This document shows, piece after piece, positions 6,046 through 54,368 of a stretch of DNA of 64,000 nucleotides; the first letter of the stretch is position 1; each line of letters opens with the position of its first letter. The stretch lies in IMG/VR virus record IMGVR_UViG_3300025018_000093; one strand, written 5' to 3'. The notes under the pieces are model-generated. The model was not told the DNA's origin and searched no databases. It worked only from the letters and a program-made list of their open reading frames with translations. Made by a program: the position numbers and the translations under genes. The stretch is from a virus. Its lineage: Duplodnaviria; Caudoviricetes.

Positions 6046-6702
6046 ATGCCTATCCGCAAGAGAGCTACATACATCAATCAACAGCAGCGGGCTACCGAGT
6101 TTCAAGTCGGGCAGCCCGTAACGCATTGGGGGCATCCGATTGAGGAATCGGGTCGTGTGACCGCAGTGTGGCCGGCTATTGGTCAGGTTGACGTGCAGTT
6201 CCCTTGGGGCAACGTTCGGGTTCCCGTTGAAGACCTCCAGATCATTGCAGACAGCACTTGGATTGTCACCCCGAAGAATGACAATACCCCAGGCGGAACA
6301 GCTACCCTGGTTTCGGGTGGTCCCTTTACGCTGAAGGATGCTCCCTATGATCCTCTTCCCCTCCCCGTGAAGGTGAAGACGGCTTCCCCTAGTCTGGAAC
6401 GTGTCGTGGTGGCCTACGTCAAGAAGGCTATCTACTGGCAGGAAAAGAATCGGAAGTACAGGGTCAGCCAGGGCGAGCGAGACAGTGGTAGCTTCCATTG
6501 TCCGCGTTGCAAGGAAACGATCCTTCGGGACGCCATCTACAAGCGCGAAGAGGGGCAGAGTGTGCGTCTTCTGGGTTGCCCCTCGTGTCTCTTTCTGGTC
6601 AAGAAGGAAGACTTGCTTGGGGTCGAGTCTTCCGCACCGGATTTGGAAGTTGCTATCCCCCAGGGAAAGAGCGTCATGATTCGCCTACTGCGGGGTGAGT
6701 GA
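6046..6702 (+). CDS. Hypothetical head-module protein with SH3-like N-terminus and Zn ribbon (CPRC...CPSC)
   Basis: ORF with two CxxC pairs, tightly packed in the head operon. Confidence 0.65.
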   Translation: MPIRKRATYINQQQRATEFQVGQPVTHWGHPIEESGRVTAVWPAIGQVDVQFPWGNVRVPVEDLQIIADSTWIVTPKNDNTPGGTATLVSGGPFTLKDAPYDPLPLPVKVKTASPSLERVVVAYVKKAIYWQEKNRKYRVSQGERDSGSFHCPRCKETILRDAIYKREEGQSVRLLGCPSCLFLVKKEDLLGVESSAPDLEVAIPQGKSVMIRLLRGE

Positions 6703-6703
6703 G

Positions 6704-34141: not shown

Positions 34142-34152
34142 CGGAGGGAAGC

Positions 34153-38180: not shown

Positions 38181-39125
38181 TTGAATCCGAACCACATCCG
38201 GAAGGCTTGGCTCGCTGTGAATGTGCAGGATCCCTGGCACAACATTCGGGAAGCTTGCAAGCAAGCGCTTCTCCTGGAAGATCACCTCTTCCACCCAGCG
38301 AAGTATTGCGAAGATTGTATCAGCAAGCATCTCCTGATGATGGAAGCTCTCCTTGAGGAAGCCGTCACCCTGGACGTGTCAGGAAGCCTCCAGAAGCTCC
38401 TAGGAAGCCTTCTGACGCGCGTGCTGACCTACCAGGTACTTTGGGCCTCCGGTCGCGCGGACGCGCGTCAGCTTGCCCAGGCGTTGCGCAAATGGCGCAA
38501 GGGGATCTGCGCGCAGGTCCTCCGCCCTCGAACGGTACACACTTCGCGTGTGGCTTCTACAGAAGCTGCTCGAAACACTGCCCTGAACCTCATTGAAGAA
38601 TCTCCCGGGAAGTCGTTTGAAAGCCTGGCGAAGACGGTACGTCAGCACGCCCAGTACCTGCGGGACCCTGTTACTCGGCAACGTGTTGACGCGGAAGATG
38701 TGGTCGAGGAGTTGGCCAAGTTGATGGGTGAGGAAGAGGTCTCGGAGGAAGACAAGCTACCTGGGGGGTACATCACGGTCTATCACGCCACGGACAGGAG
38801 CACCGCGCAGGAGTTCCTGAAGCGAGGCGCTATCCCCGAAATGAAGCCCCGACCCCGAGTCCCGATGGAGTACGCTCCGGGGAGGGGTGTTGACGTGGGT
38901 CTTTACGTGGGTCACTCTGCGAAGGCAGTGGATTCCTACGGCCCTGTGGTGCTCTCTGTGGCTGTTCCAAAGAAGTGGCTGGAAGTGCCCACAGAACTGT
39001 CCCAGTTGGGCTACAAAGACCCACTGAGGGCTCTACACGAGCATGACGGGGCCATCATCAAGAAACGTATCCCAGCTTCGGCCTTCAAAGTCGTTTTGGG
39101 GAAAGTTGGAAGGAGTGCAGCATGA
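38181..39125 (+). CDS. Two-domain protein: helical Cys/His domain + ADP-ribosyltransferase-like domain
   Basis: N: HNIREACKQALLLEDHLFH..KYCEDCISKH. C: VYHAT...RG...GLYVG...YGPVVLSVAVP (H-Y-Y ART-like pattern). Confidence 0.55.
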   Translation: MNPNHIRKAWLAVNVQDPWHNIREACKQALLLEDHLFHPAKYCEDCISKHLLMMEALLEEAVTLDVSGSLQKLLGSLLTRVLTYQVLWASGRADARQLAQALRKWRKGICAQVLRPRTVHTSRVASTEAARNTALNLIEESPGKSFESLAKTVRQHAQYLRDPVTRQRVDAEDVVEELAKLMGEEEVSEEDKLPGGYITVYHATDRSTAQEFLKRGAIPEMKPRPRVPMEYAPGRGVDVGLYVGHSAKAVDSYGPVVLSVAVPKKWLEVPTELSQLGYKDPLRALHEHDGAIIKKRIPASAFKVVLGKVGRSAA

Positions 39126-39613
39126 GTCTGAAAGGAAGTATTATTCGCCTCGCGTACCAGCGCCCTGCTCTGCGGAAGCACCTGCTTCCGTTGGTCTCGG
39201 AGAAAACCGCTGCGGAAGAGGTTCCCCTGGATGTTCAGGATTTCTTGCTCCGCATAGAGCGCACGGTGAAGAGGTACTTTCCGAGGGGGCACTTCGGTAT
39301 CCGAGCTGCTAAGGGGTTGGCGAACAGCTACGACATCTACATGGTGACCGCGACGCTCCCCAAGGGAAAGCAGCCTAACGGAATCATGCAGAATGACCCA
39401 TCGTTCAACACCTTCTGGATGTTTGGAGCCTACACCCCAGAGAGGGGTATGAATCCAAAGATCAAAGTCGAGATGTCGCAGGGTGGGAAGCTCTACAGTC
39501 CGAATGCCTTCAAGGCACAAAAGATTGGGTGGCGGGACAAGACCGGCACACCCGCACAGATTATCGCCCACTTCGACCGCTACTATGCCACGCTCGCGTC
39601 CATGGTGGAGTGA
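39122..39613 (+). CDS. Putative internal head protein with N-terminal RLAY tag
   Basis: Begins MSLKGSIIRLAYQRPALRKHLLPLVSEKTA. Confidence 0.65.
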   Translation: MSLKGSIIRLAYQRPALRKHLLPLVSEKTAAEEVPLDVQDFLLRIERTVKRYFPRGHFGIRAAKGLANSYDIYMVTATLPKGKQPNGIMQNDPSFNTFWMFGAYTPERGMNPKIKVEMSQGGKLYSPNAFKAQKIGWRDKTGTPAQIIAHFDRYYATLASMVE

Positions 39614-39628
39614 GGTGCGAGTTGTTAG

Positions 39629-39967
39629 ATGGCCAGTAAGTTTCATCCGGGAATTGAGATCCAACGTGCGGACATCCGCGTGTTTTTCACATACGATTGC
39701 GGGTCCCGGAGGAACGTTTGCGAGATCACCTATGCGCTTTACTATGTGGACCCCGGTCCACCAGAGGCAGAGGTTCTCATTGGGAGCCCACAGCGAACTC
39801 CTGTGAATCCCGAGGTGGGGGAGTATCACCCAGCGCTGTTCCTACCACTCAGTGCTGCTGTTGGATGGTACAGGCTCCGTTGGGTCTTTCGAAAGTCCCC
39901 AGAGTCCTTGCCTGAGCAAATTGTGATGCAGTTTCAAGTGGTGAGAAAGCTTCGGAGTCACGCATGA
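39629..39967 (+). CDS. Ig-like domain protein, paralog of the neck-protein N-terminal domain
   Basis: EITYALYYVDPGPPE.EVLIG..QRTPVNPE.GEY is shared with 39964-40280. Confidence 0.75.
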   Translation: MASKFHPGIEIQRADIRVFFTYDCGSRRNVCEITYALYYVDPGPPEAEVLIGSPQRTPVNPEVGEYHPALFLPLSAAVGWYRLRWVFRKSPESLPEQIVMQFQVVRKLRSHA

Positions 39968-40461
39968 CAATTCAATTCAATCCCGGAAGTGAGGTGCAAC
40001 GTGGGGATCTCTGCGCGTTCTTTCAGGATGCTTGTGGGTCCCGGACGAACATCTACGAGATCACCTATGCGCTCTACTACGTGGACCCCGGTCCCCCGGA
40101 GACAGAGGTTCTTATCGGGGCTGCACAGCGGACACCTGTGAATCCTGAGATGGGGGAGTACTACGCAGCACTGTACATCCCCCCGGACGCCATCGTGGGG
40201 AGCTATCGCATTCGGTGGACCTTCAAGGAAGCGAATGATGTTTCTCCTGCACAGGAGATCGTCATGGAGTTCCAGGTCGTGGCCAATGAGGCAACTCTGG
40301 GATGCCATTACAGTGCCTGCGTCCGGGAGCTGATGCGTCGGTTGCGCATTCACCTCCGAGATCAGTGTGTTGCTGGAGAGGAGTTGGTTGAAGTGATGGT
40401 CCACGGGGAGAAAATTGTGCTCCGAATGGACGAGCTTTGGGAGCTGACAAATGTCGAGTGA
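39964..40461 (+). CDS. Neck/head-tail adaptor N-extein (134 aa) + split intein N-half (31 aa, 40366-40458)
   Basis: ...RIHLRDQ|CVAGEELVEV...VE*; Cys1 and an intein block-A pattern. Confidence 0.8.
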   Translation: MTIQFNPGSEVQRGDLCAFFQDACGSRTNIYEITYALYYVDPGPPETEVLIGAAQRTPVNPEMGEYYAALYIPPDAIVGSYRIRWTFKEANDVSPAQEIVMEFQVVANEATLGCHYSACVRELMRRLRIHLRDQCVAGEELVEVMVHGEKIVLRMDELWELTNVE

Positions 40462-41356
40462 ACCACATTCTGTGTTGCTACCTTTGTTTGCGGAGCACGA
40501 TATCTCTTATGAAGTATTTCGTAAGAAGAGGAGACCTCCTCTGGGGATTCGGGAAAAAAGAGCTGCTATCGTGACCTGTCTACATCAACAGGGGTACTCG
40601 TGGTCTGAGATGATTTCAGTTACGGGCTTGTCTCAGGGGGCAATTCAAAGACTGACACAGGCCAAGGGTTGCGCCGCAGTACAGGAGAAGCTGAGGCTCC
40701 TGGGAACAGAGGTCGGGAAGTCCTGGAAAAGTCGCAAAAGACCAGGCCAACTTGAGCGGCAGTGGGAGACAGGGGTATTTGACCACCTTCGCGGACGTAA
40801 GCGTCCTGTCTGGGAGAGGGAGTGTTTGAAGGACTCTTGGACCCCAGAAAGAAGAGATGCCCAAGCTGTGCGTAGTTCTGAGACTGTATGGGGGGTCGAG
40901 GAAGTTCGAAATCGGATTCTGGCTTTCCACCGTTCTCCCGAAGAAAGGGCGCGGCGTTCTCGTCTTCAAACTCAGCGTATGCAAGAGAACCCTGTGAAGT
41001 ATCTTCGCGGGAAGGGTGGTTGGGTAGAAACTCCCAAGGGCGATAAAGATCAGGTTTTTGTGCGAAGTTCTTATGAGAGGGCGGCAATTTCTCTGCTAGA
41101 AGAGGACCCTCTGGTTATCAGTTACCAATTTGAGCCTCGATTTGTTCTTCTCAATGGTAAGTGGATACTTCCCGATTTCTTGGTACTTCCAAACCAGCCT
41201 CCCCACATACTCATCGAGGTGAAGGCTTCCTGGGTTTTGAAGCAAGCCCCCGATACAAAAGTACAACAGAGACTCCGTGCTGCTCAGAGCGTAGCTTCCG
41301 AAAGAGGCTGGAGCTTTGAGGTCTGGACGGAAGAGGAGTTGGCAGATGCTCTCTGA
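40451..41356 (+). CDS. Free-standing homing endonuclease: HTH + TnsA-N-like PD-(D/E)XK domain
   Basis: RSSYERAA...YQFEP...LPDFLV...LIEVKA...GWSFEVWTE. Overlaps both intein halves by 11 nt. Confidence 0.8.
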   Translation: MSSEPHSVLLPLFAEHDISYEVFRKKRRPPLGIREKRAAIVTCLHQQGYSWSEMISVTGLSQGAIQRLTQAKGCAAVQEKLRLLGTEVGKSWKSRKRPGQLERQWETGVFDHLRGRKRPVWERECLKDSWTPERRDAQAVRSSETVWGVEEVRNRILAFHRSPEERARRSRLQTQRMQENPVKYLRGKGGWVETPKGDKDQVFVRSSYERAAISLLEEDPLVISYQFEPRFVLLNGKWILPDFLVLPNQPPHILIEVKASWVLKQAPDTKVQQRLRAAQSVASERGWSFEVWTEEELADAL

Positions 41357-42239
41357 TGCGCAAAAAGAAAAGATCACTCGGGCCTTCCAGGAGAAGGCAT
41401 TGTGTGTAAGGTCTGTCTCTCCCGAGGGGCATTCCGAGTGGAAACGGGTTGTCCAGACGCATCGTGCTGAAGTGCCCTGGGAGGATATTTTTGAAGCAGA
41501 AACGGAGGGAGGGTCCTTTACTCTTACACGGGGACATCGTGTTTTCGTGACTCCTGTCGTAAAGGAGTCCATGGAGGACTTGAAAGAAGGTAGCACGGTT
41601 ACAGGTGTCCGAGAGGGAAAGGTAGTCGAGATTCCCCTTCGGGGTGTCAAGAGAGTGGCTTACCGCAGGTTCATGTATGATCTAACAGCGGAGGATTGGC
41701 ACAACTTTGTGCTGCATACCTCCGGTGTCCTGATCAGCAACAGCCCCGACAAGTTCTATCACTTCCGGCCCCCAGAGCACGAGGGGCGCATCGGAAAGTT
41801 CAACAGGGTGTTTGGGCAAATCTGGGAGGACGAAGAGCTGCTGGTCTACCTCCAGACGGCGCTGACAGACTGGAATGCTAAGCCCCCGGAGACCGAGAGT
41901 CTTTGCACCTTGGATGCACTCTGCGCACACAAGCCTGTATGGACCGGCTACATCATGACGAGAGCTATGTTCTATGCTCTCTATGCCCTGGCAATCAACT
42001 GGGTCGCTGACGAGTTCGATTACAGTATCGGTGGAATCTCCCTCAATATTGACAAGTCGTCGAAGTATGAGCAGATGAAACAGAATGCTAAGGCCGAGTG
42101 GGACTCTCACGTCGAGACCAAGTTGCAAACCACCAAGCTCGTGCGTGGTCTGCAGCAACCGCGATTCGGTATCGGCATACGCAGCGCGTTCGGCCCACAT
42201 GTAGGCCGGGGTGTTTTGAGCCCCCGATCCTTCCTCTGA
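41346..42239 (+). CDS. Split intein C-half (132 aa, 41346-41741) + neck/adaptor C-extein (165 aa)
   Basis: GAGGAG RBS; TLTRGH (block B), MYDLTAEDWHNF (block F), GVLISN|S (block G). Extein contains WEDEELLVYLQTA. Confidence 0.85.
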   Translation: MLSDAQKEKITRAFQEKALCVRSVSPEGHSEWKRVVQTHRAEVPWEDIFEAETEGGSFTLTRGHRVFVTPVVKESMEDLKEGSTVTGVREGKVVEIPLRGVKRVAYRRFMYDLTAEDWHNFVLHTSGVLISNSPDKFYHFRPPEHEGRIGKFNRVFGQIWEDEELLVYLQTALTDWNAKPPETESLCTLDALCAHKPVWTGYIMTRAMFYALYALAINWVADEFDYSIGGISLNIDKSSKYEQMKQNAKAEWDSHVETKLQTTKLVRGLQQPRFGIGIRSAFGPHVGRGVLSPRSFL

Positions 42240-42336
42240 GCAATTTTTTCTAAGTAATTACAATCACTTACGTTTTTCTGGACACGTCCTCAGACTTTTG
42301 CTACCTTGATTCAGGTGGCAGTCGATGGAGGACCAC

Positions 42337-42480
42337 ATGCCAGTCAAATGCCCGTACTGCGGAAAAGAGTTTCAAGGTGACAAGCTCAACGCACGTCACT
42401 TGTCGAAGTGCAACCCTGAGCTGCAAGCAACCGTGCCCCCGTGCCTCTGCGGGCACGAGTCTACGTCATTGGGGTGTTAA
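42337..42480 (+). pseudogene. Truncated Zn-finger ORF, probable endonuclease N-terminus
   Basis: GGAGG RBS; MPVKCPYCGKEF...NARHLSKC...CLCGH, then a stop after 47 aa. Confidence 0.5.
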
Positions 42481-42642
42481 CGCGTTTTCGATTTCGTCTA
42501 CACAACGTAGTAGATTGGTTTGTACCTGCGTCTCTGAGAAGCGAAGTACTTGGAACCCTCTTTGTTCTAGGTGCTTTGTTTGCTTCTGGTCTTTTTCCAA
42601 TTGCTTTGGAAAACGGGAGCTATGCCAGTAGTCGCCATCCGC
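42466..42642 (-). pseudogene. Startless DUF559/Vsr-like endonuclease C-terminal remnant
   Basis: Hand translation: ADGDYWHSSRFPKQLEKDQKQTKHLEQRGFQVLRFSETQVQTNLLRCVDEIENALTPQ*. Confidence 0.7.
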
Positions 42643-42699
42643 AATCTTCTGCTTTGCAGAGCTTTTTTGTTCTGCTGTCTGAGCAAGCGGGGGAATGCT

Positions 42700-44181
42700 A
42701 TGACGTTACTTCGAGACCTGGTACGGTTAGCGTACAAGCATGCGCACCTGCGCCCTGCTTTGCTTCCCCTCCTGAGGGAGGCGGCCTCTGCGGATTCCTG
42801 GAATGAGGACAAGCACGGCAACAAGTGGAGAGAAGTGAGTGGTCGTGTGGAGTATGAGTTCGAGCCGGATGTACCTCCGAGCAGACGAACCTGGCCTCCT
42901 CGACAAGATCACATCAAGACTGCCGAGCTGGCAATGCTGCGGAACGGTTACAAGACCGACAAGTCCGACCTACTTCAAGTTGTGGAAGGTGAGAAGCTTG
43001 TGCGGTATTGCGTGCAAGTCCCTGCATTTCTCCCACCGAACAAGTCCGGTGTGAGCCGTATAGCACCCGTCAAGGTGCAACTGGACTTGCGAGGCCTGGT
43101 TGTGGACAAGAGGCCCTCGGATTGTGTACCCCTTCCGAGTCTTGTCGCCCGGTATGCCAGATTCATACACCAGGGTAGAAAAACAGTTCGACGTGACACC
43201 CTGAAAGGGTACTTCAAGTCTGGGTTCTATGTTCGATTTGGAGCATGGTCCGGCCCGTCTACGTTTGGACTTGTGACGAACAATGAGGATTACGACGAGT
43301 GGAGTGAGCTGGGGAAACGTCATGAGATGGGTGTGTCCGTTTACGGCGTGCGGCGGATACGAGGTCGTTGGGTACTGGAGGACATAGATCGTAGTCAAGC
43401 GGTCTATGGTGTTGGAGACTACTGGGAGCACATGCTTGGCAGTGTACTGCGGAACCGACCGCTCTATCTCGTTCGTGGTGTTCCCATTGCAATCGAAGAC
43501 TCCCAGAATCCTGACAAGCCCTACTTGGCTAAGGGATCCGACGGGGAGCCCCTGTTGGAGCTGGATTCCGTGCACAAGGTCCAACAACTGAACCCCTATG
43601 AGGTCTTCGTCATTGACACGAAATCGGAGTCTGGCGTGAACGTTGGGAATGAACTCTCTATAGGCGATGCTAGTTGGCAAGGACGGATTGTTTCGCAGCC
43701 AGCTGGAGAGACGGCAATGAATCGGAATGCAACGGGGCGCTTAGCCGGAAACGGGGTTTCTATTTGGTTTGGGGACTCCTTTATCGGGTCTCCAAAAGCT
43801 TTTGGCCAACGCGGATACCCAACGTTGCGGGAAGCTGTGTCCGCAGCAAAGGCGGCAGTGGGTAAGCTACCCTCCCCTCTAGTGGCGGAAGATCCTGGAT
43901 TCCTCCCACCGGGATCTGTAGGTAAGCCACTGGCATCAAGTTGGAAACTTGGTGAGGCTGTGAATGCGGGTATTGTTTTGCACTACCCCCAGCCAGGCGG
44001 GAAGAGCCTGTACATGGCTGCGAGTAACTACCTGGTGAAACGAAAGCATCGACCTGCGGATAGCTTATCCATGAAGCCTCTGCCGAAACAGAAGGGGACT
44101 TTGCGGCCTTTGCATGCAAGTGTGATTCGACTTGCCTACCAACACCCAGAGCTGCGAAAGCATCTTCTTCCGCTACTGTGA
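42700..44181 (+). CDS. Putative multidomain internal head protein, RLAY tag at both ends
   Basis: N: LVRLAYKHAHLRPALLPLL. C: VIRLAYQHPELRKHLLPLL*. Middle YVRFG...EMGVSVY domain. Confidence 0.7.
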   Translation: MTLLRDLVRLAYKHAHLRPALLPLLREAASADSWNEDKHGNKWREVSGRVEYEFEPDVPPSRRTWPPRQDHIKTAELAMLRNGYKTDKSDLLQVVEGEKLVRYCVQVPAFLPPNKSGVSRIAPVKVQLDLRGLVVDKRPSDCVPLPSLVARYARFIHQGRKTVRRDTLKGYFKSGFYVRFGAWSGPSTFGLVTNNEDYDEWSELGKRHEMGVSVYGVRRIRGRWVLEDIDRSQAVYGVGDYWEHMLGSVLRNRPLYLVRGVPIAIEDSQNPDKPYLAKGSDGEPLLELDSVHKVQQLNPYEVFVIDTKSESGVNVGNELSIGDASWQGRIVSQPAGETAMNRNATGRLAGNGVSIWFGDSFIGSPKAFGQRGYPTLREAVSAAKAAVGKLPSPLVAEDPGFLPPGSVGKPLASSWKLGEAVNAGIVLHYPQPGGKSLYMAASNYLVKRKHRPADSLSMKPLPKQKGTLRPLHASVIRLAYQHPELRKHLLPLL

Positions 44182-44262
44182 CAAGCTGGTAGGTAAGGAC
44201 AGAGGATTCAATTCCTCGTTTATAGTCTCAGGGGAGTGTTCCCCGACGTTGGAGGTTCTCAG

Positions 44263-44991
44263 ATGACTTTGATCCCGAAAGACAAGAAAGTATTTGATCA
44301 GTTCACGGACAAGAGGGCTAGTCGTTTTGCGGGTGCTGCCGTTTCCGAGCGATCCTTGCGTGCAAGTGTGATTCGACTTGCCTACCAACGCCCAGAGCTG
44401 AGAGGTCACCTGCTCCCTTTGCTGCGACAAGCTAGCAGTGTGGATATCGTTGCGAAGGTGGGCTATGGATTGCGAACGTTTGCAAGTAGCCTAGCTCCGA
44501 ATTGGACAGAAGATAGTGCCCTGGAATGGGCGGGTCTGCTCGACCGGAACAGGAACCTCTTCTCCTACTACAGACCGCTAATCCGTGGGGGTAAGTTTGT
44601 GGACCTCCCGGATGAAGTTCTGGATGAGATCCTCTCTTGGGAGGCCCCTCTGCTCAAGTTGTTCAAGAAAATGCAGTCGATCCTTAACAAGGTCGGATAC
44701 CCGCAACGAGTGGCCAACATGATGGCTGGTCTCACCGAGAGAGCAATCTATGTAGGTCATGCGGACCCCGTCCAGAAGATTTTGGAAAGCCTCGTGTTGT
44801 CGCTAGACGCCAGGAATGCTTACAAAGACCTCGGAGCGAAGGGAGAGCAGGTAGCTCGCATGATAGCGAAGCTTTCCAAGGTATCCCTGAAAATTGGGGC
44901 TGACACAGGTGTGAGTGACGTGGGTGAGAGTGTGACGGATGACGTGTATGATCTCGATGCGGAGTACAACAAGGACCTGCGTTCCTACTAG
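44263..44991 (+). CDS. Putative internal head protein with RLAY tag
   Basis: GGAGG RBS; SVIRLAYQRPELRGHLLPLLRQAS. Confidence 0.65.
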   Translation: MTLIPKDKKVFDQFTDKRASRFAGAAVSERSLRASVIRLAYQRPELRGHLLPLLRQASSVDIVAKVGYGLRTFASSLAPNWTEDSALEWAGLLDRNRNLFSYYRPLIRGGKFVDLPDEVLDEILSWEAPLLKLFKKMQSILNKVGYPQRVANMMAGLTERAIYVGHADPVQKILESLVLSLDARNAYKDLGAKGEQVARMIAKLSKVSLKIGADTGVSDVGESVTDDVYDLDAEYNKDLRSY

Positions 44992-45001
44992 CCCCTACAC
45001 G

Positions 45002-45844
45002 TCAGCCCAGTAGCACCTGGTTGGTCGCGTTGATGGTAGCCTCAAAGTCTGCCTCGGTCATCTCGACATTGCGAGGAGACCCTGCGATCCCCTTGTGCCC
45101 ACCGGCTTCTGGTCCCCAGAGTTCCTGGACCAGAGCGCAGCAGTTCAGCGGCACACTGGGGTTCTCTGCGGAGACCGTGATCGCCTTCGTCTTTGTGTTG
45201 AAGGCGATGACGGCTTGGGCCACGTGCCCCTCGTGCTCGTACAGGTGGTTGACGAAGGCGTCGGCTTCCCGCACCAGGACGTTCCCATGCCATCGGAGGA
45301 AGCTCTGGACTTCCAGCTCAGCTTGCTTCACCGCGTTGGCGTCGCCGGCAGTGAGCAGAGACTCGTCACCGTCCAGGATGGCTGTGATGACCTCGGTGGC
45401 CTTCTGCAGGAACTCCGTGCAGTCGACTGCCGTCCCGTCACGGGGCGGGAAGTAGCGATTGCTCGTGCTCCAGGCCCAGAATGCTTGGAGTGCCCGGATG
45501 TCCTCCTCAGAAGCCTCGGCTTGGCACAGACGGTGTGCTCCGTTGACGTCCACGAAGGCGGCCAGCTCCCAGAACCCTGCATGGTTGGGGTAGGCAGCGG
45601 GATGCTTCGTGACGACCATGACACCACCAAGGGTGTCAAGATCAAAGTGGCTCAGACCGATGGTCTCGACTTGGTTCGGCTCCACCGTTGCCACACAAGG
45701 AGCAGGGTTGTGTGCCCGCTCGCCGTGATGAGCGAGTGTAAGGAGCTTCCCCTCGACCAGGACCGAGCCGTACTCGGCCTCGACGGTGGCGTCCAGATTG
45801 AGTTCCGCCAATTTTTCTGCGCTGCTTGCGATCCAAATTCTCAT
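45002..45844 (-). CDS. DHH-like phosphoesterase-related protein
   Basis: AHH, SHFDLDTLGG, and C-terminal GGHKGIAGSPR (DHHA1-like); GGAGG RBS. The only intact minus-strand gene seen. Confidence 0.6.
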   Translation of the reverse strand: MRIWIASSAEKLAELNLDATVEAEYGSVLVEGKLLTLAHHGERAHNPAPCVATVEPNQVETIGLSHFDLDTLGGVMVVTKHPAAYPNHAGFWELAAFVDVNGAHRLCQAEASEEDIRALQAFWAWSTSNRYFPPRDGTAVDCTEFLQKATEVITAILDGDESLLTAGDANAVKQAELEVQSFLRWHGNVLVREADAFVNHLYEHEGHVAQAVIAFNTKTKAITVSAENPSVPLNCCALVQELWGPEAGGHKGIAGSPRNVEMTEADFEATINATNQVLLG

Positions 45845-46054
45845 CTTACCCTCCAAGGGAGCGAGTCAACCTGACCCGCTTGTTGTGTGTAGAACCGTCG
45901 TTTTGCGCGGCATGTGACACTTTGCAGAAAGTATTTCACCACCGCAGCAGGACCGTCGGTGGTAGATACACTATACCCCGGCTTTCTGTGGTTGACCAGC
46001 GTTCTCTTCCAAGGTCCCACTTGAGGTCTCCTTTCAACACGAGGTTCTGTCATC

Positions 46055-46717
46055 ATGCCGTACAATCAGTTGGCGCTTTTCCGGTCTGCTGGAAGTGATC
46101 CCTATTTCTCCAAGCGGGCAGAGTTCAAGATGTCCCCGGCAGACAAGAAGGTCTTGGATGCTTTCGTTGACAAAGAGTCTGCGGACTCCAAGAAGTTGTC
46201 CTCCGATGGAAAGACGCTGGATGGCAACTGGATGGGCGGTAAGGGAATTGCCGTGTGGAAGGGTGACAAGATCCATCTTGAGGATACGGGTGGAAAGTCT
46301 GCGGATACGATCCACCGTGCCATCCGCAAGATGGCCCCTCGTAACCTGGTAGCAGCGTCCCGTCAGGCAGCCGTCAGGCAGGGGGTTCGCTCCCTCATCC
46401 ACAAGCTCGCTCGGATGTCCGACGAGGCGCGGGAGCTGGAGTTGTTCATCGAGAATGACGGGCAGCTCTACCGGCAGCAGTATGCTCCGATCATTCAGAA
46501 CCTGATGCGCAAGCGGAACAAGGGGGTGTATGACTTCGCCCTGAGCATCAAGCTCTTCATGTACCTGGCAGACGCTGGTGCCAAGAAGTACCACGCTGAG
46601 TTTGGATCACCAGGGCTCCCCTGGAACAAAGCCTTCCCCAAGGCGACACGAATGGAAGTTGCCAAGTCTTTGGCAGAGTCCTTCCTGACTGAGGCTGAGT
46701 CCGGTGGATATCAGTGA
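46055..46717 (+). CDS. Two-domain hypothetical, probable internal head protein
   Basis: DKKVLDAFVDK domain, an RQAA linker, then an ELELFIENDGQLY...YD...GAKKY domain. Confidence 0.65.
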   Translation: MPYNQLALFRSAGSDPYFSKRAEFKMSPADKKVLDAFVDKESADSKKLSSDGKTLDGNWMGGKGIAVWKGDKIHLEDTGGKSADTIHRAIRKMAPRNLVAASRQAAVRQGVRSLIHKLARMSDEARELELFIENDGQLYRQQYAPIIQNLMRKRNKGVYDFALSIKLFMYLADAGAKKYHAEFGSPGLPWNKAFPKATRMEVAKSLAESFLTEAESGGYQ

Positions 46718-46813
46718 AGAGGTTGGAAAGGTTGGCCTCCTTCCAGGCCGAGGACAGTTTCTCCTGAGCCATGGTTTTCGGCAAGCGTTGCGGGATAGCA
46801 TATAGGTGATCGG

Positions 46814-47977
46814 ATGGCTGGAACACCCCATGGAATCCATTCAATAGTCAGTGCCTATGCTTCGAATGAAATTGCGGTGCAGGCACAGTTCTGTCGAATC
46901 ATTGCGGCCCTTGATCACGTAGAGGCCTTCGGTTACTGCACACGGATCGCGAGCTACTACGGGCTGACCGGCACGGGGTTTGGGATGCCTGGAAGCGGGG
47001 CTGAGCCTGGTCGCTGGGCATTTGCGGTGTATCGTTGGAACGCCAATGCGGGGCGGACTTGGGAGTGGTACCTGCTTGTGCAATTTGGGATGGGTTCCGC
47101 AGTAGGGTCTGGGGGTGAGCCCACGTACCCAATGTACCTTTCGGATCCGAATCTTTTGTTTGCATCTGCTGTGGCGTTTGACCAGTTAGGGGCGCCGGCA
47201 AACCCTTGGAGAGGTACTGTACTGAACAATGGCGCGGATTCCAAAGCGGCCACTGTTTGGGGGAAGCCCACGGGTCATGTCGATGAGAGAGTTTATGCAT
47301 GGCCTCGGTGTAACGACACGGGTGGGACCTATGCAACGAATAAGCAGTCGCTAGCTGTTGCAGAGGCTGTGTCCTCAAGTAACTACTATGGCTATACTAT
47401 GCGGTCGCATGTGCTATGCGATGCAGATGGTTTCTTTTACGGTCATGACCGCATGAATGAGGGGGAGAGTGTTGGTTTTATCATCGTTGCTCCCTACACC
47501 CCCTTGGACGGACTCTCGGCCAGAGCCCCGCTATTCATGCTCACGAGGGGTAGTGTTGGGGAGGTCCCTCTCGATGTATCTATTGGGGCTATTGGGACTT
47601 CGAATGTGGACGGAGGTGTGTTTTCACCGAAAGCAGACCAGGTTAACATCTGTCGCATTTACACGCGAGCTTCGGACTACACGGAGACGGCATACCCAGG
47701 CTATCAAAGCAACCACCAATTCACGACAAAGACCGTCACCGCCGTGCGAATCCCACTGTATGTGTATGAAGCGCCGTACCAGGGGTTTCTGGGCTATCTG
47801 GATGACTTTGTCATGCTGTCTTCTGCTGTCGTTCGAGGCAGCACGCTTCAGAGTAAGTCCTATGTGGGGTTGTTGTCCGACCATCTCAGCAATGGGGAAG
47901 GTGTTGGGATCGTGAAGTGGGATGGTGTAACCGCAGATCCAATGGCGGGTAACAGTTCCCTTGGGGTGACTTTCTGA
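46814..47977 (+). CDS. Virion protein, paralog 1 of 3
   Basis: MAGTPHG start, WDGVTxDP..G end. Confidence 0.75.
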   Translation: MAGTPHGIHSIVSAYASNEIAVQAQFCRIIAALDHVEAFGYCTRIASYYGLTGTGFGMPGSGAEPGRWAFAVYRWNANAGRTWEWYLLVQFGMGSAVGSGGEPTYPMYLSDPNLLFASAVAFDQLGAPANPWRGTVLNNGADSKAATVWGKPTGHVDERVYAWPRCNDTGGTYATNKQSLAVAEAVSSSNYYGYTMRSHVLCDADGFFYGHDRMNEGESVGFIIVAPYTPLDGLSARAPLFMLTRGSVGEVPLDVSIGAIGTSNVDGGVFSPKADQVNICRIYTRASDYTETAYPGYQSNHQFTTKTVTAVRIPLYVYEAPYQGFLGYLDDFVMLSSAVVRGSTLQSKSYVGLLSDHLSNGEGVGIVKWDGVTADPMAGNSSLGVTF

Positions 47978-47986
47978 GGTGTTGGT

Positions 47987-49186
47987 ATGAGTGGAACTCC
48001 ACATGGTAGGCATTCAATCTATTTACCTCCGTCTCCGCTATCAACTGAGGATGCGGCGAAAACCCACTTTGTGGCGATTATCAAAGCACTTGATGCGATT
48101 GCAGCGTCTGGTAATTGCGCGCGGATTGCCTCGTTTTACGGTTCCGGAGGGACTGGATTTGAGTATCCCGATTCCGGCCTGGGATCTCCAGGCAACACCG
48201 CCTTTGTCGTGTACCGATGGGGTACATCAACTGGGAAACCCTTTTCGTGGTACTTATTGGTCCAGTATGCCTACGGGTCAACCTTCAATACGGCAGGGAA
48301 CGGTCAACCTGCTCTGTACCAGGGCGGAAATGGAATAACTAGCGCCTGCTGTGTAGGCTTTTCTGTAGCAGTTGCGTTTGATCAGTTTGGAACCTCCGTA
48401 AGCCCCTGGAAGGGAACTGTACTGGATGACGGGACGGATACAAAAGCCAACCCTGTTTGGGACGTGCCAACAGGTCATCTTGATGAGCGGCTGAGTGTCT
48501 GGCCAAGATCCAATAATCCTGGAGGGTCTCATGCTACCGCACGACAGAACCTGACAACCTTCTATCAAGCTACATCAACTACGCTGAATAGCGTAGAGAC
48601 GTTGCTTTTTCTGGTAGCCGACGCAGACAGTATGTTTATCACGTCGGACGTTTACTGTAATGGCACTATTGATACGATTGCTTTCGTCACCCCGATCTCT
48701 GTGATTGCTGAGCTGGAGGCACCCTCACAGGCTTCATTGTACGCTATGGGTTCAAACACTCCGTATAACTTGTTGAATGCTGCGATGCCTAATGCTACGG
48801 CTGGTACAGGCGATCCCAATGGGGGCGTTTTCTCTCCTCTACTTGAGTACCCTGTAGCAGGGATTGTCTACACGAGATCGCCGGACACGAGTAACGTGAG
48901 TCCTTACCAGCCAACGAAACAAGCGGAGACCCGAAAGAATATCCTGTTTCCGTTTGCTGTGTACGCTGACGAGACTCCAAACAAGGGTTTTGTGGGCTAT
49001 GCCTGGCCGTTCATCCAGTATTCCCAGCTTGTTCCCGCGTATGCTACGCTGGACAACAAGCTGAAAGTGTCTTTGTCAACAGGACTAAGTCGCACAGGGG
49101 GCGGGATGCTTAACTTCATAGTTCCGTGGGATGGTGTGACGGCAGATCCTTCGTCCGGTCGTACACGTGAAGGTGTGACGTTTTAG
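47987..49186 (+). CDS. Virion protein, paralog 2 of 3
   Basis: MSGTPHG start, PWKGTVLDDGTDTK, WDGVTADP. Confidence 0.75.
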   Translation: MSGTPHGRHSIYLPPSPLSTEDAAKTHFVAIIKALDAIAASGNCARIASFYGSGGTGFEYPDSGLGSPGNTAFVVYRWGTSTGKPFSWYLLVQYAYGSTFNTAGNGQPALYQGGNGITSACCVGFSVAVAFDQFGTSVSPWKGTVLDDGTDTKANPVWDVPTGHLDERLSVWPRSNNPGGSHATARQNLTTFYQATSTTLNSVETLLFLVADADSMFITSDVYCNGTIDTIAFVTPISVIAELEAPSQASLYAMGSNTPYNLLNAAMPNATAGTGDPNGGVFSPLLEYPVAGIVYTRSPDTSNVSPYQPTKQAETRKNILFPFAVYADETPNKGFVGYAWPFIQYSQLVPAYATLDNKLKVSLSTGLSRTGGGMLNFIVPWDGVTADPSSGRTREGVTF

Positions 49187-49195
49187 GGGGAGCGG

Positions 49196-50344
49196 ATGGC
49201 CGGTACACCACATGGAATAATCTCGATAGCCTCTGGGGGCTCAAGTAACCCCTTCGCAGATATCGTGATGGCTCTTGACTACCTAGAGTCCACGTATGGG
49301 ACCTGCGAGCGCATCGCGAGCTACTATGGCCAAGACAGTTCCATTCCGACTAATTATGGAACGGGGCTAGGTCGCGGACAGTTCCTGCAGCGTGCCTTCG
49401 TCGTTTACAAGTTTCCGGCGAACTCGGGGAGACTTTACGACTGGTATCTGCTGATGCAGGTTTCGTGGGGCAACCTCACGTTTGACCTCAGCAACAACTT
49501 GATCAATGGAAATAGCAATGCCACTACGGGATTGGCGTTAGGCTTTCAGGTAGCGATTGCCCTGGATAGTGCCGGCAACACCGTGAACCCTTGGCAGGGT
49601 ACCGTGTTGAATGATGGGACAGATACGAAGCCCACAGTTGGATGGGATGCTCCGGTAGGTGGAAAGCTTTTTGTCTGGGGCAGATCCAACTCTCCGCTAG
49701 ATGGCACCTACGCAACCAATCGAAACAATACGATAGGGGTGCGTGACGCAACGAGTGTGTCAGACTTGGCACGGCGGATACACGTCATTGCAGATGATGA
49801 CTGTCTTGCGATCTATCACCAGAACGAAACCAGTTCGAAGCACATTTACTATTTCATTGCCTCCCCGGTGATTCCCGTCACGAACCTCACATTTGATGTG
49901 CCGTTCGCAGTGCTTTGTCGCACAGCAGTTGTGAACAGTTCCCTCTGGGGTACTTTTCCTAGTGCAGTGAATGAAAACTCCACAACGAACGGCGGCGTCA
50001 ACGCTCCGATCCCTGGAAACGTGGTGTCGGCGCATGGTGACTACGCCAGATTGTTGGGGGACGAGTCGGACACCTTCCAGCCGAACAACCAATTTGCTTC
50101 GACCACCTACACAGAGACACCCGTGTTCCTGTACGCGGAGGAAAACCCCTACAAGGGGCTAATCGGGCAGCTTGATCCTTTTGTTCGCAAGACCTTTCGG
50201 GTGACCTACAACTCGACTTTGAACTCGATGACTCGCGTTGCGTTGGGGTTCGATTCAACCACCTACAAGATGCGCATGACTCTGCCCTGGGATGGTGTGA
50301 CCACCGATCCTTTGTCTGGTGGAGCCACCGGAATCCAGTTCTAG
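49196..50344 (+). CDS. Virion protein, paralog 3 of 3
   Basis: MAGTPHG start, PWQGTVLNDGTDTK, WDGVTTDP. Confidence 0.75.
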   Translation: MAGTPHGIISIASGGSSNPFADIVMALDYLESTYGTCERIASYYGQDSSIPTNYGTGLGRGQFLQRAFVVYKFPANSGRLYDWYLLMQVSWGNLTFDLSNNLINGNSNATTGLALGFQVAIALDSAGNTVNPWQGTVLNDGTDTKPTVGWDAPVGGKLFVWGRSNSPLDGTYATNRNNTIGVRDATSVSDLARRIHVIADDDCLAIYHQNETSSKHIYYFIASPVIPVTNLTFDVPFAVLCRTAVVNSSLWGTFPSAVNENSTTNGGVNAPIPGNVVSAHGDYARLLGDESDTFQPNNQFASTTYTETPVFLYAEENPYKGLIGQLDPFVRKTFRVTYNSTLNSMTRVALGFDSTTYKMRMTLPWDGVTTDPLSGGATGIQF

Positions 50345-50353
50345 GAGTGTCCC

Positions 50354-50623
50354 ATGGCAGATTTCGGGGCGGTGTTTTTGGCGGAGCAGCCCGTAGCTTT
50401 GGAACCGAGCTTGGAGTTGTCGGTAGACTTTGCTTTGGGAACTCCTAGTGGTGGAATCCCCTCCATACGTTACTACTATATGCGTGCCTGGAATACGAAC
50501 TTGAGCGCCTACGTGCATTGGCGCGTCCCTGACGAGCCAGACTTTGTGGGCACGTATAGCGGGTATCCGACAGGGGACATTCAAGACGCAACTGTGCTGA
50601 TGTTCGAGATGTCAGACCAGTAA
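50354..50623 (+). CDS. Small hypothetical protein
   Basis: AGGAG RBS; YYYMRAWNT...HWR motif. Confidence 0.55.
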   Translation: MADFGAVFLAEQPVALEPSLELSVDFALGTPSGGIPSIRYYYMRAWNTNLSAYVHWRVPDEPDFVGTYSGYPTGDIQDATVLMFEMSDQ

Positions 50624-50680
50624 CTTCAACAGCAACCTGCCATATGAGGGAAAGTCCTGTGTTCCTTCTGGGAGATTGAG

Positions 50681-51046
50681 ATGGCATCGCGTCAGCAGCA
50701 GCAACAACTTTTGTCACTAGTGACTCAGATTCTTCAAGATAGCGCGGAGGATGGCAGGAAGGAGGAAATGGTCTTTGGGAAAGCTCTGGAAGACCTTATC
50801 CTCACAGCTAGTGCGGAGGCTGTCACGGCGAGTCGCTTTTTGGACCTGCTCATTACAGCTCTGAGCCGAGACGATTCGCACTCTCTGGATAACGCGGTGA
50901 AAGCTCTCAAGGGGTCCTTGCTTGCGTTATCCCGCGTGGCGGAGAACGTGGGGCGCTTCTACGGGAACCCGAACCAACGTCTTCGTGTTCGTGCGGCCTC
51001 TGCGGAGAGAGTCGCGCAGAGGTACCTGGAAGGGAAAGACGAGTGA
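50681..51046 (+). CDS. Hypothetical helical protein ending in AERVAQRYL
   Basis: 121-aa ORF. Confidence 0.6.
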   Translation: MASRQQQQQLLSLVTQILQDSAEDGRKEEMVFGKALEDLILTASAEAVTASRFLDLLITALSRDDSHSLDNAVKALKGSLLALSRVAENVGRFYGNPNQRLRVRAASAERVAQRYLEGKDE

Positions 51047-51129
51047 GGACTCCAGGGTTTTGGTATACCTTTGATTGTTTTGCTTAGGTAGGGGGCAGGT
51101 TGCCTGAGAATGTATGACTGAGGTTTCCC

Positions 51130-51621
51130 ATGACAGCCAATGGTTTTGACTTATCTCAATGTGTGCTTCACCATGAACGCATTGTTGAGTTGCGAAAGGA
51201 CGTCCAGGAGCTACAACAACATCTTTCCTGCAAGGCTCTGGGGGAGGATGTTCGTGGGATCAACCAACGTCTTGACAAGTTTGCCTCTGGGATGCTGGAA
51301 AAGATGAAGGGGGACACACAACTTGCGGCACGTGTGGACCACCACCATGAGTTGCTGTTGTTCCTGGATGAGGTTCTCATCCGAGGGACCTCCAATAGCT
51401 CTTCCATAAAGGCTGTTGTGGAGAACCTTCGTCAGGAGGTTGGTCAGCTTTCGGATTTCTACCGGCAACTGGATAGTTTCGTTTCCGACTTGAAGCGGGA
51501 GAGAGTAGCCATAGACGTGGCTCGGATACATGCTACGTCGTCCAATTGGAAAACGATTGCGATTCTTCTGGGGACCTTTCTCACAGCGCTTGCCAGTCTT
51601 TTTGTCGCTCTTCTTACATGA
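51130..51621 (+). CDS. Coiled-coil protein with C-terminal transmembrane helix (holin/XhlA-like layout)
   Basis: Ends WKTIAILLGTFLTALASLFVALLT. Confidence 0.5.
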   Translation: MTANGFDLSQCVLHHERIVELRKDVQELQQHLSCKALGEDVRGINQRLDKFASGMLEKMKGDTQLAARVDHHHELLLFLDEVLIRGTSNSSSIKAVVENLRQEVGQLSDFYRQLDSFVSDLKRERVAIDVARIHATSSNWKTIAILLGTFLTALASLFVALLT

Positions 51622-51628
51622 GGACAAC

Positions 51629-51865
51629 ATGCTTGATCAAAGTCCTTTGCAGACCTTGATGACCTTAGTTGAGGCCGTCATCTCCGATGGGAAGCGGGTG
51701 ATGAGTTACACCGAGCTTCAAAACCGGCTCACGGCTCTGGGGATGGAGATTGAGGAGGGGAAGAGTCCGGAGGAAGCCTACAAACAAGCAGAGCTTCACT
51801 TCAAACGGTCGCAATCCCCCTCTCCGGAAGCCACACTGGTTCCTGTAGGGGAAAAAGCGAAGTAG
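51629..51865 (+). CDS. Small hypothetical protein
   Basis: GAGGA RBS; 78 aa. Confidence 0.5.
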   Translation: MLDQSPLQTLMTLVEAVISDGKRVMSYTELQNRLTALGMEIEEGKSPEEAYKQAELHFKRSQSPSPEATLVPVGEKAK

Positions 51866-51982
51866 CTGGGCAACTACCTATCTGTCTTTGGTAGAACATA
51901 GCTGGACAGGTCTCCTGGGAGGCGTCACGCTTTCTGGGAGGCTTTCACGCCTCCAGAGAGGCTACAGAAAAGGGTCACCAGT

Positions 51983-52324
51983 ATGACAGAGGAAAGCAGC
52001 AAGGTGGTTGGGCAGGTTGATGCGGCGGAGATGCAGTCTATCAACTCTCTGCAGACACGAGAGCAGGAGTTGACGTATCGTGTCGGTCAATTGTTCCGGG
52101 AAGCTCTCTCCGTTGCCATGCAGGCGGGTGAGGCTCATCATGGATTGCAGCGAGTGATGCAGGGGCTTCGCCAGCGCATGAGCATTCCCGACGACAGTCT
52201 GTTCCGCATTTCCTATGACGGAAACATTCATCTTGTGGCGCCTCCAGCCCCCGAGGGTGGTGCTACACCGGAAGCGGAGGCACCCATCGTGAAGACGAAG
52301 GAAGACGCCTCAGAAGAGGAATGA
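51983..52324 (+). CDS. Small coiled-coil protein
   Basis: 113 aa helical ORF with acidic tail. Confidence 0.55.
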   Translation: MTEESSKVVGQVDAAEMQSINSLQTREQELTYRVGQLFREALSVAMQAGEAHHGLQRVMQGLRQRMSIPDDSLFRISYDGNIHLVAPPAPEGGATPEAEAPIVKTKEDASEEE

Positions 52325-53929
52325 GTGACTATCGGTTGGGACCCACAGTCTTTTCCTGCCGGGGACTTCCCCATGCCTCCCTTCAACGGGGAAGTGGTGA
52401 GTCCTCTTTTCCAGGGCACGTTAGACATTCGCTGGGACAACCCAGCCATCCTGTCTGCAAACACCCCATGGCAGGTTGTGGGGGTCAACCTCTATCGCTC
52501 CGATGTGGGGGAGCGGGGTCCCTATCACCGGATCAACGAGTACCCCTTGGGGGGTTCGTTTTACCGGGACTTCACGGATAACCTCCTGGTGAGTCAGGAG
52601 GTTATCCGCTGGGGCCAAGATTGGATCTATCAGGGGAATGGGCCGAACCATCGGCACTATCGATTTCGTACGCAGTGCCCCATCGTGAAGTCTGGAAACC
52701 GAGTCTTACCGCTCCCCACTGGGGTAGATCCTGTTTCCAACTCCGGGGTAGGGTGTCCAACCTTCGTCCCTGGGGCGGTCACTTCTGCGATGAGTGGTCC
52801 TTTTCCTTTCGTCTACGCAAATGCTCCAGAAGACGTGGTCGTGTCCATAGATGGGCAGGTTGTCCCCGTGGATTCCGTGTTTGGGTTAGCGGGAGAGGTG
52901 ACGCTGATTGACCAGCCTTACTTCGATTCGGTGGCGCAGAGTCTCATCCCACCTGTGCTGCCATCTGCAGACTCCCAGGTCTGGGTCACGTACAGGACGA
53001 ATCGTAACGTTGTCCGATACGAGCTAGACCGCAAGATTTTCTACAGGTTGACGACAGTCGCGGTGGCCAATGACCCGGAGGTCCCCGGTGGCCTGGTTGA
53101 GACCCCTCTCAAGTACGCCCAACCACTCACGCCGATCAAAGTAGAGTCCTTGGATTGGGTGTGGCGGGAAGCCGTGCGGAGGAACAATTGGGTCCTGGAG
53201 CAGGGTGGAGAGAGAGTCAAGGCGTTCGTTCGCAAGACGGCTGGAGTTCCCTGCCACTGCATCTGGGATGCACGGAAGAGATCCTATACAGGGCAGCCCC
53301 GGAACAGGTGTTTGACCTGCTACGGGAGTGGATTTGAGGGTGGTTACGAGGGTCCTTATGAGATCATCATTGCTCCAGATGATGCAGAGAGACGGATTTC
53401 TCAGACACTGCGTGGACGTAACCTCGACCACACCTATGAGGTATGGACAGGACCCACACCGCTATTGACGATGCGAGACTTCGTGGTCAAGCAAACCAAT
53501 GAGCGCTACAGCATTGGCCCTGTCCGAAAACCCTCCAGTCGTGGGAACATCCTGCAACAGCATTTCAACATCAAGTATCTTGACGAGGGGGACATTCGCT
53601 ATCGTGTTCCCGTGGACAATCTCTCGGGGATGCCTTGGCCGGGGAGTCGCACCACAGTGGATCCCGGAGAGGAGAAGCTGGTCTACCCCGTGGCCGAGTA
53701 TGGACCCATGCACCAGCTCACACCCAGTGAGCATAGTCCGCAGGAGTACCCTGTCGAGCCCGATCCCCACCAGGCCACTCCAATGGCCACGGAGAAGGAT
53801 AACATCGGTGATTCCAGGGAGCATCGCGGTCGCACGAAAACTTGGGAGAATCAGAACTATCTTTGGTGGTTGGCTCCCTTTGTGCTGGGGTTACTCCGTT
53901 GGGTGGAGGTGATGTCCAATGGAATCTAA
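52325..53929 (+). CDS. Neck/head-closure protein with FnIII-like N-terminus and Zn-binding insert (putative)
   Basis: LDIRWDNP...GVNLYRS; CHC...RCLTCYGSGFEGGY; RDFVV...NERYSI; neck-module context. Confidence 0.6.
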   Translation: MTIGWDPQSFPAGDFPMPPFNGEVVSPLFQGTLDIRWDNPAILSANTPWQVVGVNLYRSDVGERGPYHRINEYPLGGSFYRDFTDNLLVSQEVIRWGQDWIYQGNGPNHRHYRFRTQCPIVKSGNRVLPLPTGVDPVSNSGVGCPTFVPGAVTSAMSGPFPFVYANAPEDVVVSIDGQVVPVDSVFGLAGEVTLIDQPYFDSVAQSLIPPVLPSADSQVWVTYRTNRNVVRYELDRKIFYRLTTVAVANDPEVPGGLVETPLKYAQPLTPIKVESLDWVWREAVRRNNWVLEQGGERVKAFVRKTAGVPCHCIWDARKRSYTGQPRNRCLTCYGSGFEGGYEGPYEIIIAPDDAERRISQTLRGRNLDHTYEVWTGPTPLLTMRDFVVKQTNERYSIGPVRKPSSRGNILQQHFNIKYLDEGDIRYRVPVDNLSGMPWPGSRTTVDPGEEKLVYPVAEYGPMHQLTPSEHSPQEYPVEPDPHQATPMATEKDNIGDSREHRGRTKTWENQNYLWWLAPFVLGLLRWVEVMSNGI

Positions 53930-54368
53930 GACCGCCATCAAACGAATGCAGGCGCCTGCTTTCCGAAGAAAGGGGAGACAGTATGTCATCCACGAGATAG
54001 CGGGGGTTCCGAAGGATAAGTGGGATGAGATGCCCTTCCCTCAGAAGATCCAGTCCGTTCAGGATTACTACATCACGTTGACGAAGCGGCCCAAGCTCAC
54101 AAACGTGCTACGCAAGCACATGAATGCGATGAAGCGATGGTTCAATATCCAGAAGCGTAAGCACAAGCCCTGGCGCTCTCGCATCCAGAACTTCTTCGAC
54201 CATCGTGTCAAGCGCATTCGGGACAAGAAGGTTCTTCGAGACAAGAAGATGACTCGTGATGGAGGATTTGCTCACCAGGACGTGGCTATGTATCGTGCTC
54301 TGGTGCGGTTGGCCTATCAAAAACCGGAGCTACGGGGTAAGCTACTTCCCTTGATCCTGGGGGACTAA
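53919..54368 (+). CDS. Very basic protein with C-terminal RLAY tag
   Basis: K/R-rich; ends ALVRLAYQKPELRGKLLPLILGD*. Confidence 0.65.
   Translation: MESKTAIKRMQAPAFRRKGRQYVIHEIAGVPKDKWDEMPFPQKIQSVQDYYITLTKRPKLTNVLRKHMNAMKRWFNIQKRKHKPWRSRIQNFFDHRVKRIRDKKVLRDKKMTRDGGFAHQDVAMYRALVRLAYQKPELRGKLLPLILGD

Follow-up and report, generated by a model that had tools for sequence, protein, structure and literature searches.

Encapsulin cargo-loading peptides bind the inside of an HK97-fold shell that is free of DNA and has no portal, terminase or tail. The C-terminal helix-turn-helix of the P22 scaffold, like the C-terminal helix of the 80alpha scaffold/CpmB, contains essential basic residues and binds the capsid protein during procapsid assembly, and the coat-binding element of the P22 scaffold can carry foreign cargo. 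In phage T4, the capsid targeting sequence (CTS) is roughly 10 residues long and is finally removed by the prohead protease, whose cut motif is L/I-x-E. In the T-even phages, the internal proteins are diverse anti-defence proteins that share only the CTS, which directs them into the scaffolding core (PMC3012670). For a further group, the 'polyvalent proteins', Iyer et al. (2017; PMC5512222) predicted packaging in the capsid and delivery together with the DNA. Here, we analyzed a 64,000-nucleotide stretch (hereafter, the window) of the Caudoviricetes record IMGVR_UViG_3300025018_000093, in which a peptide of ~27 residues (hereafter, the tag) is attached to otherwise dissimilar proteins. We found that the tag is a portable module present on thousands of proteins and confined, among the sampled carriers, to a single clade of huge phages with genomes of up to ~0.5 Mb. 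Its best explanation, to which we assign a probability of roughly one half, is an address label for the capsid that is trimmed by the head protease.

The initial annotation had placed the tag five times on four genes, and these copies were all recovered by the open reading frame (ORF) listing, a six-frame regular expression and a profile hidden Markov model (HMM). Their consensus is x-LR-xxx-IRLA-Y/H-xx-P-x-LR-xx-LLPLL. A degenerate DNA pattern encoding R-L-A-Y-xx-P-x-L-R-xx-L-L-P-L matched the window four times, compared with 0.00 matches in 100 dinucleotide-preserving shuffles. The fifth copy, at the N-terminus of gene B, has Ala in place of Pro, and the profile HMM detected no weaker sixth copy in the window. 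Gene A (39122..39613, plus strand, 163 aa) carries the tag directly after Met1, at residues 1-27 (39122-39202; 48.6 bits), and its start codon overlaps the stop codon of the upstream gene by 4 nt. Gene B (42700..44181, plus strand, 493 aa from the ATG at 42700) carries two tags (34.4 and 40.9 bits), namely the degenerate N-terminal copy at 42700-42780 and a C-terminal copy at 44110-44178 that ends at the stop codon. In gene C (44263..44991, plus strand, 242 aa), a leader of ~30 residues precedes the tag (44353-44430, residues ~31-56 from the ATG at 44263; 49.5 bits). Gene D (53919..54368, plus strand) encodes a very basic protein of 149 aa whose C-terminal tag (54288-54356; 42.1 bits) lies three residues before the stop, and the gene shares 11 nt with its upstream neighbor and 1 nt with its downstream neighbor. 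The tagged genes of the window share their strand with the structural genes and show translational coupling to adjacent genes.

The four proteins were said to be dissimilar, and outside the tag we detected no similarity among genes A-D; Pfam searches gave no family and PHROG searches no significant PHROG for any of them. Homologues of gene A with the same N-terminal tag exist in L001/G001, a 497-kb relative, and in LR745208, where the gene lies inside the head module. The Atlas model of gene A was alignable only from residue ~32 on, Atlas searches with genes A and B returned nothing usable, and a homologue search with gene D gave matches confined to its tag. As a separate observation, the pattern P-x-DKKV-x-D-x-F-x-DK in the leader of gene C (44274-44312) recurs at the N-terminus encoded by 46055-46717 (46135-46173), and this motif may be a second small shared module.

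A run of 29 identical nucleotides (44115-44143 and 44361-44389) had also been reported, and it forms the perfect core of a 90-nt repeat (44103..44192, plus strand, with its partner at 44349-44438). The two 90-nt copies are 80% identical, span the C-terminal tag of gene B and the tag of gene C, and continue 12 nt beyond the stop codon of gene B, where TGA is paired with CGA. Because this identity at the DNA level extends past the stop, the pair reflects a recent duplication or conversion of DNA. The remaining copies in the window vary at synonymous sites, so it is the protein sequence that is conserved. Therefore, the proposal that the tag moves as a DNA module was borne out for this one pair and failed for the remaining copies. 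A second motif type proposed alongside the tag, (E)RVAxRYL-like, was abandoned, as its two regular expression matches, against 0.4 expected, look like chance.

When run on IMG/VR, the same degenerate DNA pattern returned 22 loci. All of them are true tag instances because the positions that the pattern leaves free (the upstream L-R, the Ile/Val before R-L-A and the Glu/Gln after Tyr) are also conserved. As a control, the pattern was run on 185,579 prokaryote genomes (596 Gb), where it yielded two matches, both plainly spurious. A tag profile of 30 columns (A2), searched against 1.84 billion representative proteins, found the tag on 3,942 of them at E<=1e-3 and on 514 at E<=1e-10, and each of the best 150 matches contained two to seven tags. 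The three largest records contained 24 tag matches (the 497-kb genome, 94% complete), 18 (a 372-kb contig) and 11 (LR745208.1). An HMM scan of the IMG/VR loci revealed arrays of adjacent genes that each begin with the tag, long ORFs with several internal tags, and an RLAH variant that is more frequent than RLAY.

We located the tags within 47 ORFs, drawn from the window and 20 phage contigs; 39 stand directly after Met1, 7 end within four residues of the stop and 11 are internal. Outside the tag, the mean column identity of 44 carriers is 7%. Some proteins consist of tags and Lys/Glu/Asp-rich linkers only, for example a 63-aa protein with two tags. The claim that a portable tag is attached to unrelated proteins was therefore strongly supported, since the unit is autonomous, is found at either terminus and occurs on thousands of proteins. 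We retrieved no account of the peptide from the literature searched. The carriers have in common neither a Pfam family nor a PHROG family of described function, and among PDB chains the tag profile hit only 7ue2_A, at a non-significant E=4.5.

Further short modules recur in the Lys/Glu/Asp-rich linkers between the tags of four multi-tag proteins (P0001, P0007, P0020 and P0119); they are AGCEKLPEGPMRDNC-like (with two Cys), FDPxEI..PGxLE...KGxFT-like and GEVPEAFKKQW-like. Additionally, some genomes have their own flavor of the tag. In the 497-kb relative, at least ten carriers (loci L037-L046) bear a variant with one extra residue (RLAHENPGEVRDAILPLL), and in LR745208.1 the eleven tags hardly differ from each other (0.80 within the genome versus 0.64 to others). 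We considered such flavors as a sign of co-evolution with a receptor and rejected this use of them. Ungapped tags were 0.627 similar within and 0.619 between genomes (p=0.19), and in a larger set the values of 0.637 and 0.611 (p=0.013) were driven by LR745208, G013 and the window, a signal too weak to use.

The window is part of the genome of a huge phage. A database match to its protease lies on a 261,416-bp contig, and nearly all genes of the window are on the plus strand. Its head genes include a head maturation protease (6695..8143, plus strand, 482 aa; phrog_18299), an acidic, repetitive protein of 528 aa between the protease and capsid genes (8164..9750, plus strand) that is probably a scaffold or core protein, a decoration-like protein (10189-10872) and a major capsid protein of the HK97-fold family phrog_2522/PF25209 (10887..11774, plus strand, 295 aa). 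The capsid protein is 81% identical to that of LR745208.1 (uncultured, 485 kb), 46% to that of Tunturiibacter phage Tunturi_5, 38% to that of Bacillus phage G and 28% to those of cluster C mycobacteriophages. By analogy with the related Tunturi_5, hosts of the clade may be soil bacteria akin to Acidobacteriota. Capsid proteins of the tag carriers are 76-81% identical to that of the window, whereas their protease, decoration and scaffold-like proteins reach only 41-60%. Ten of the 20 carrier contigs hold this capsid family, and the other ten are fragments with an estimated completeness of 3-36%. The tag was found neither in phage G and Tunturi_5, nor in 11 Tunturi-like contigs of the sister clade (three of them complete genomes, 332-463 kb), nor in other records among 50,697 GenBank phage records. 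The capsid protein has at least 1,773 database matches at E<=1e-5, so the clade that carries the tag is abundant in metagenomes.

AlphaFold2, run on the tag alone with a 30-residue alignment, predicted a helix at residues 3-13, a break before the invariant Pro and a second helix at residues 15-29, with a mean pLDDT of 92.5. The invariant or near-invariant positions (L3, R4, R9, L10, A11, P15, L17, R18, L21, L22, P23 and L24) make up a hydrophobic face and three arginines in the predicted helix-break-helix unit. The tag was also said to be often bordered by K/R-x-A, and this was confirmed statistically. The motif [KR]-x-A lies downstream of N-terminal tags in 87 of 138 cases (63%; background 7.8%) and upstream of C-terminal tags in 34 of 60 (57%; background 12%); internal tags have it upstream in 86 of 166 cases (background 12%) and downstream in 111 of 166 (background 7.8%). 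The enrichment at the borders is thus 5-8 fold, and the usual layout is G-K-K-A-S, the tag and K-E-A.

Scaffolds are classic multi-site substrates of prohead proteases. In all eight genomes compared, the acidic scaffold-like protein contains K-x-A 5-18 times, compared with 1.3-4.7 times expected from composition-preserving shuffles (a 3-6 fold excess), and mostly directly after an acidic run. In the same comparison, K-x-A was absent from the portal, capsid and decoration proteins. The proteases carry a conserved K-[A/S]-A right after the catalytic domain. The presence of K-x-A both in the scaffold-like protein and at the borders of the tag is predicted by a model of packaging and trimming, and we infer from these patterns that K/R-x-A at the tag borders may be cleaved.

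About a quarter of the 44 carriers at the first loci have Pfam domains. These are RNA ligase, 2H-SAK phosphoesterase, ART-PolyVal, Zeta toxin, ParB-like nuclease, pentapeptide repeats, WGR, AAA_33 kinase-like, DUF2958, DUF4192 and DUF7717, a repertoire that overlaps that of the polyvalent proteins (PMC5512222). The 116 multi-tag proteins have a few DUF families, pentapeptide and LRV repeats and a TFIIS-like domain. Pfam assigned one DnaJ domain and nothing else to the 23 carriers of the 497-kb genome, and no domain to 10 carriers of LR745208.1. Across 193 carriers, Pfam detected no polymerase, helicase, primase, terminase, capsid or tail domain. As for the genomic context, the head module of LR745208.1, the nearest relative, is syntenic with that of the window; its gene A homologue, which is tagged, has the scaffold-like gene on one side and the decoration and capsid genes on the other. 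Elsewhere among the relatives, tagged genes either come two to four genes behind the capsid gene or adjoin the portal gene. Gene D, within the neck/tail operon of the window, directly follows a gene (52325-53929) homologous to the 'minor tail protein' of Tunturi_5 and to a 'structural protein' of a Salmonella phage.

Overall, the cargo repertoire, the location of tagged genes in structural operons, the protease-site-like flanks shared with the scaffold-like protein and the co-occurrence of the tag with clade-specific parts of head assembly lend circumstantial support to the reading of the tag as a capsid address label. We provide a putative mechanism on this basis. Late in infection, the tag would dock its carriers onto a component of the assembling procapsid. 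Candidates are the capsid protein, on its inner face, the acidic scaffold-like core protein and the C-terminal domain that the protease has only in this clade. The head protease would then cut at the K/R-x-A bordering the tag, as it would in the scaffold, and free the cargo inside the head. The cargo would stay with the DNA, and at least part of it would enter the next host cell, where it might counter defences or take over the host. The initial annotation had envisaged an arsenal of injected effectors; this reading of packaging and injection remains the best explanation, on circumstantial evidence, and most carriers are orphans and not effectors that can be recognised as such.

Three head proteins are candidate readers of the tag. 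The capsid protein is a candidate receptor because its conservation across the clade far exceeds that of the other head proteins, as would be expected of a receptor common to all members. The protease has a C-terminal extension of ~190 residues that was found in 9/9 head loci of its own clade and in 0/35 loci of the sister clade, and that is undetectable in Tunturi_5 and phage G. In the model of the protease (mean pLDDT 49.9), only the last ~90 residues are confident; they are predicted to be helical (pLDDT 70-91), and the extreme C-terminus is conserved (EARTLIRLAxLL-like). The protease with this extension is a candidate reader of the tag, a candidate trimmer or both. The scaffold-like protein, likewise found in 9/9 own-clade and 0/35 sister-clade loci, contains EEGAKKKA four times and RMLASMLR(E/Q)A twice, as well as a Pro-rich N-domain that is conserved and a C-terminal motif (DLSKLWESAPDVSK-like) that is conserved across the clade; it is a candidate receptor and may itself undergo the same processing. 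The clade has the tag, the C-terminal domain of the protease and the scaffold-like protein, and its sister clade lacks all three. Co-folding of the capsid protein, the N-domain of the scaffold-like protein and the tag scored 0.00, a 'no answer' that speaks neither for nor against binding. A putative IR[LI]A helix shared by the tag, the C-terminus of the protease and the N-domain of the scaffold was rejected as evidence: against the tag profile the protease scores below 0 bits, and outside tags the 4-mer is seen 5 times, with 3.0 expected.

We also consider a more elaborate version, in which addressing is programmable, bidirectional and multivalent. The protease C-domain or the acidic core would read the tag, up to two dozen proteins per genome (thousands across the clade) would be loaded, and K/R-x-A would release them. 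In this complete form, we regard the scheme as tentative and rather unlikely. In a more radical variant, the tags would dock onto the phage actin-like protein, which would form an internal body or a delivery track. The gene in question (55874-57991; Pfam Volactin, 3.8e-71) lies in the neck/tail operon of the window and bears an intein with a LAGLIDADG domain.

Several facts weigh against the capsid label. Most tagged proteins are orphans without a recognisable domain, DnaJ and TFIIS-like domains are odd cargo, and tag-only and multi-tag proteins are not obvious cargo at all. Many tagged genes are far from the head module, as in the 497-kb relative, across which they are scattered, and an array of three tagged genes (L036) adjoins NUDIX, NAD synthase and isochorismatase-like genes that look like an NAD-salvage cluster. 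K-x-A may be a part of the folded module, such as a helix cap, and not a cut site. The clade has no cultured member and hence no virion proteomes. Additionally, the actin-like gene is present in 4/5 tag-bearing genomes and 0/5 tag-less relatives; it is therefore as clade-specific as the tag, and co-occurrence cannot separate a head receptor from other novelties of the clade. The last point, together with the scattered genes and the DnaJ-type carriers, which suit an intracellular role, would also fit a hub outside the capsid. The tag could dock its carriers in the infected cell to a filament of the phage's own actin-like protein, to a compartment for replication or assembly, or to a host machine, and so concentrate accessory proteins there; being terminal and multivalent, with flexible charged linkers, it does look like a generic docking peptide. 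However, no replication or transcription enzyme is tagged, the flanking K-x-A is shared with the scaffold-like head protein, and tagged genes are often within head or neck operons. Moreover, hundreds of genes must be clade-specific, so the co-occurrence with actin is weak evidence. We consider docking to such a hub unlikely.

The abundance of proteins with two to seven tags and Lys/Glu/Asp-rich linkers (all of the best 150 matches have at least two tags), the existence of proteins made of tags only and the predicted amphipathic two-helix unit raise another possibility, namely that the tag needs no receptor and associates with itself. Multi-tag proteins would then form a network, perhaps an inner body or condensate that might lie in the head, and single-tag proteins would partition into it. 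In contrast, the three conserved surface arginines would repel one another in a homotypic bundle unless paired with acidic residues, and most carriers in each genome have a single tag, which makes self-association a doubtful and, in our judgment, quite improbable explanation. Finally, the tag might carry no address and act solely as a recognition signal for a protease, as a propeptide or degron that sets when its carrier is activated or removed. This would agree with the K-x-A borders on the cargo-proximal side and with the conserved K-[A/S]-A that follows the catalytic domain of the protease. Nevertheless, a highly conserved folded unit of 27 residues far exceeds the needs of a cut site, and proteins tagged at both ends or made of tags alone are hard to explain in this way; we judge a purely proteolytic role highly improbable.

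Other genes of the window are given here for orientation. The terminase large subunit gene (to 764) and the portal gene (1456-3237) are followed, directly after the portal gene, by a gene for a 2H phosphoesterase fused to a eukaryotic-type topoisomerase IB (3270-5558). In relatives, this fusion protein is 920-1272 aa long; it carries no tag, though it occupies the usual site of packaged polyvalent proteins. Two large paralogous proteins of 691 and 1576 aa (25593-27668 and 28327-33057) have no family match, and their relatives adjoin tagged genes in four other phage contigs (L001, L005, L013 and L021). A patatin-like phospholipase gene (34120-35067; Pfam, 6.6e-28) lies on the structural strand. 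Three tandem paralogues of ~385 aa, each beginning with M-(A/S)-GTPHG, occupy 46814-50344; they have no match in Pfam or PHROGs, and the one paralogue tested had none in PDB or GenBank phages either. PDB sequence searches with two neighboring genes also returned nothing.

If the tag is indeed a capsid label, a large and abundant clade of huge phages packages a big, fast-evolving arsenal of proteins, and metagenomes would yield, by a simple sequence rule, thousands of candidates for injected effectors and for anti-defence proteins. The T4 CTS, the coat-binding motifs of scaffolds and the cargo peptides of encapsulins would then be versions of one principle that operates on HK97-fold shells. The tag would also provide a ready-made means, independent of the end to which it is attached, of loading foreign proteins into very large capsids. 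Whatever its function, a 27-residue module that is present on at least 3,942 protein clusters and has no Pfam or PDB entry merits description as a family.

Among the described systems, encapsulin cargo peptides resemble the tag in being terminal peptides, attached at either end to unrelated cargo, in a system whose shell has the HK97 fold. However, the tag belongs to a genuine tailed phage, in which homologues of terminase, portal, protease and tail are present, and it is longer, predicted to be helical and unlike the encapsulin consensus. The P22 scaffold offers a match in form, as the tag is likewise an element of ~30 residues, predicted to have two helices, with three invariant or near-invariant Arg. 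In contrast to the P22 arrangement, the scaffold-like proteins are untagged in 9/9 head modules (eight relatives within the clade and LR745208), and the tag is found on dozens of other proteins. The tag thus lacks defining features of both systems. Carriers share conflict-type domains with the polyvalent and MuF effectors, including ART, 2H phosphoesterase, Zeta toxin, ParB-like nuclease and pentapeptide repeats (PMC5512222), and some long carriers similarly chain several modules, here separated by tags. They differ in that most of the tagged effectors are single-domain proteins, each with its own tag, and no MuF family was found by Pfam on the 193 carriers.

The strongest resemblance is to the CTS of the T4 proteins IPI-III and Alt, where one short peptide is the sole common part of diverse, polymorphic small proteins and an ADP-ribosyltransferase. 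Similarly, the tag is attached to small orphans and conflict enzymes, its genes are often arrayed, and it is bordered by a candidate cut site. There are differences as well. With ~27 residues and two predicted helices, the tag appears unlike the T4 consensus in sequence, it also occurs at the C-terminus, internally and in multiple copies, and its border is K/R-x-A instead of the L/I-x-E of T4. By analogy, therefore, we suggest that the tag, although not a member of the CTS family, works most like the T4 CTS.

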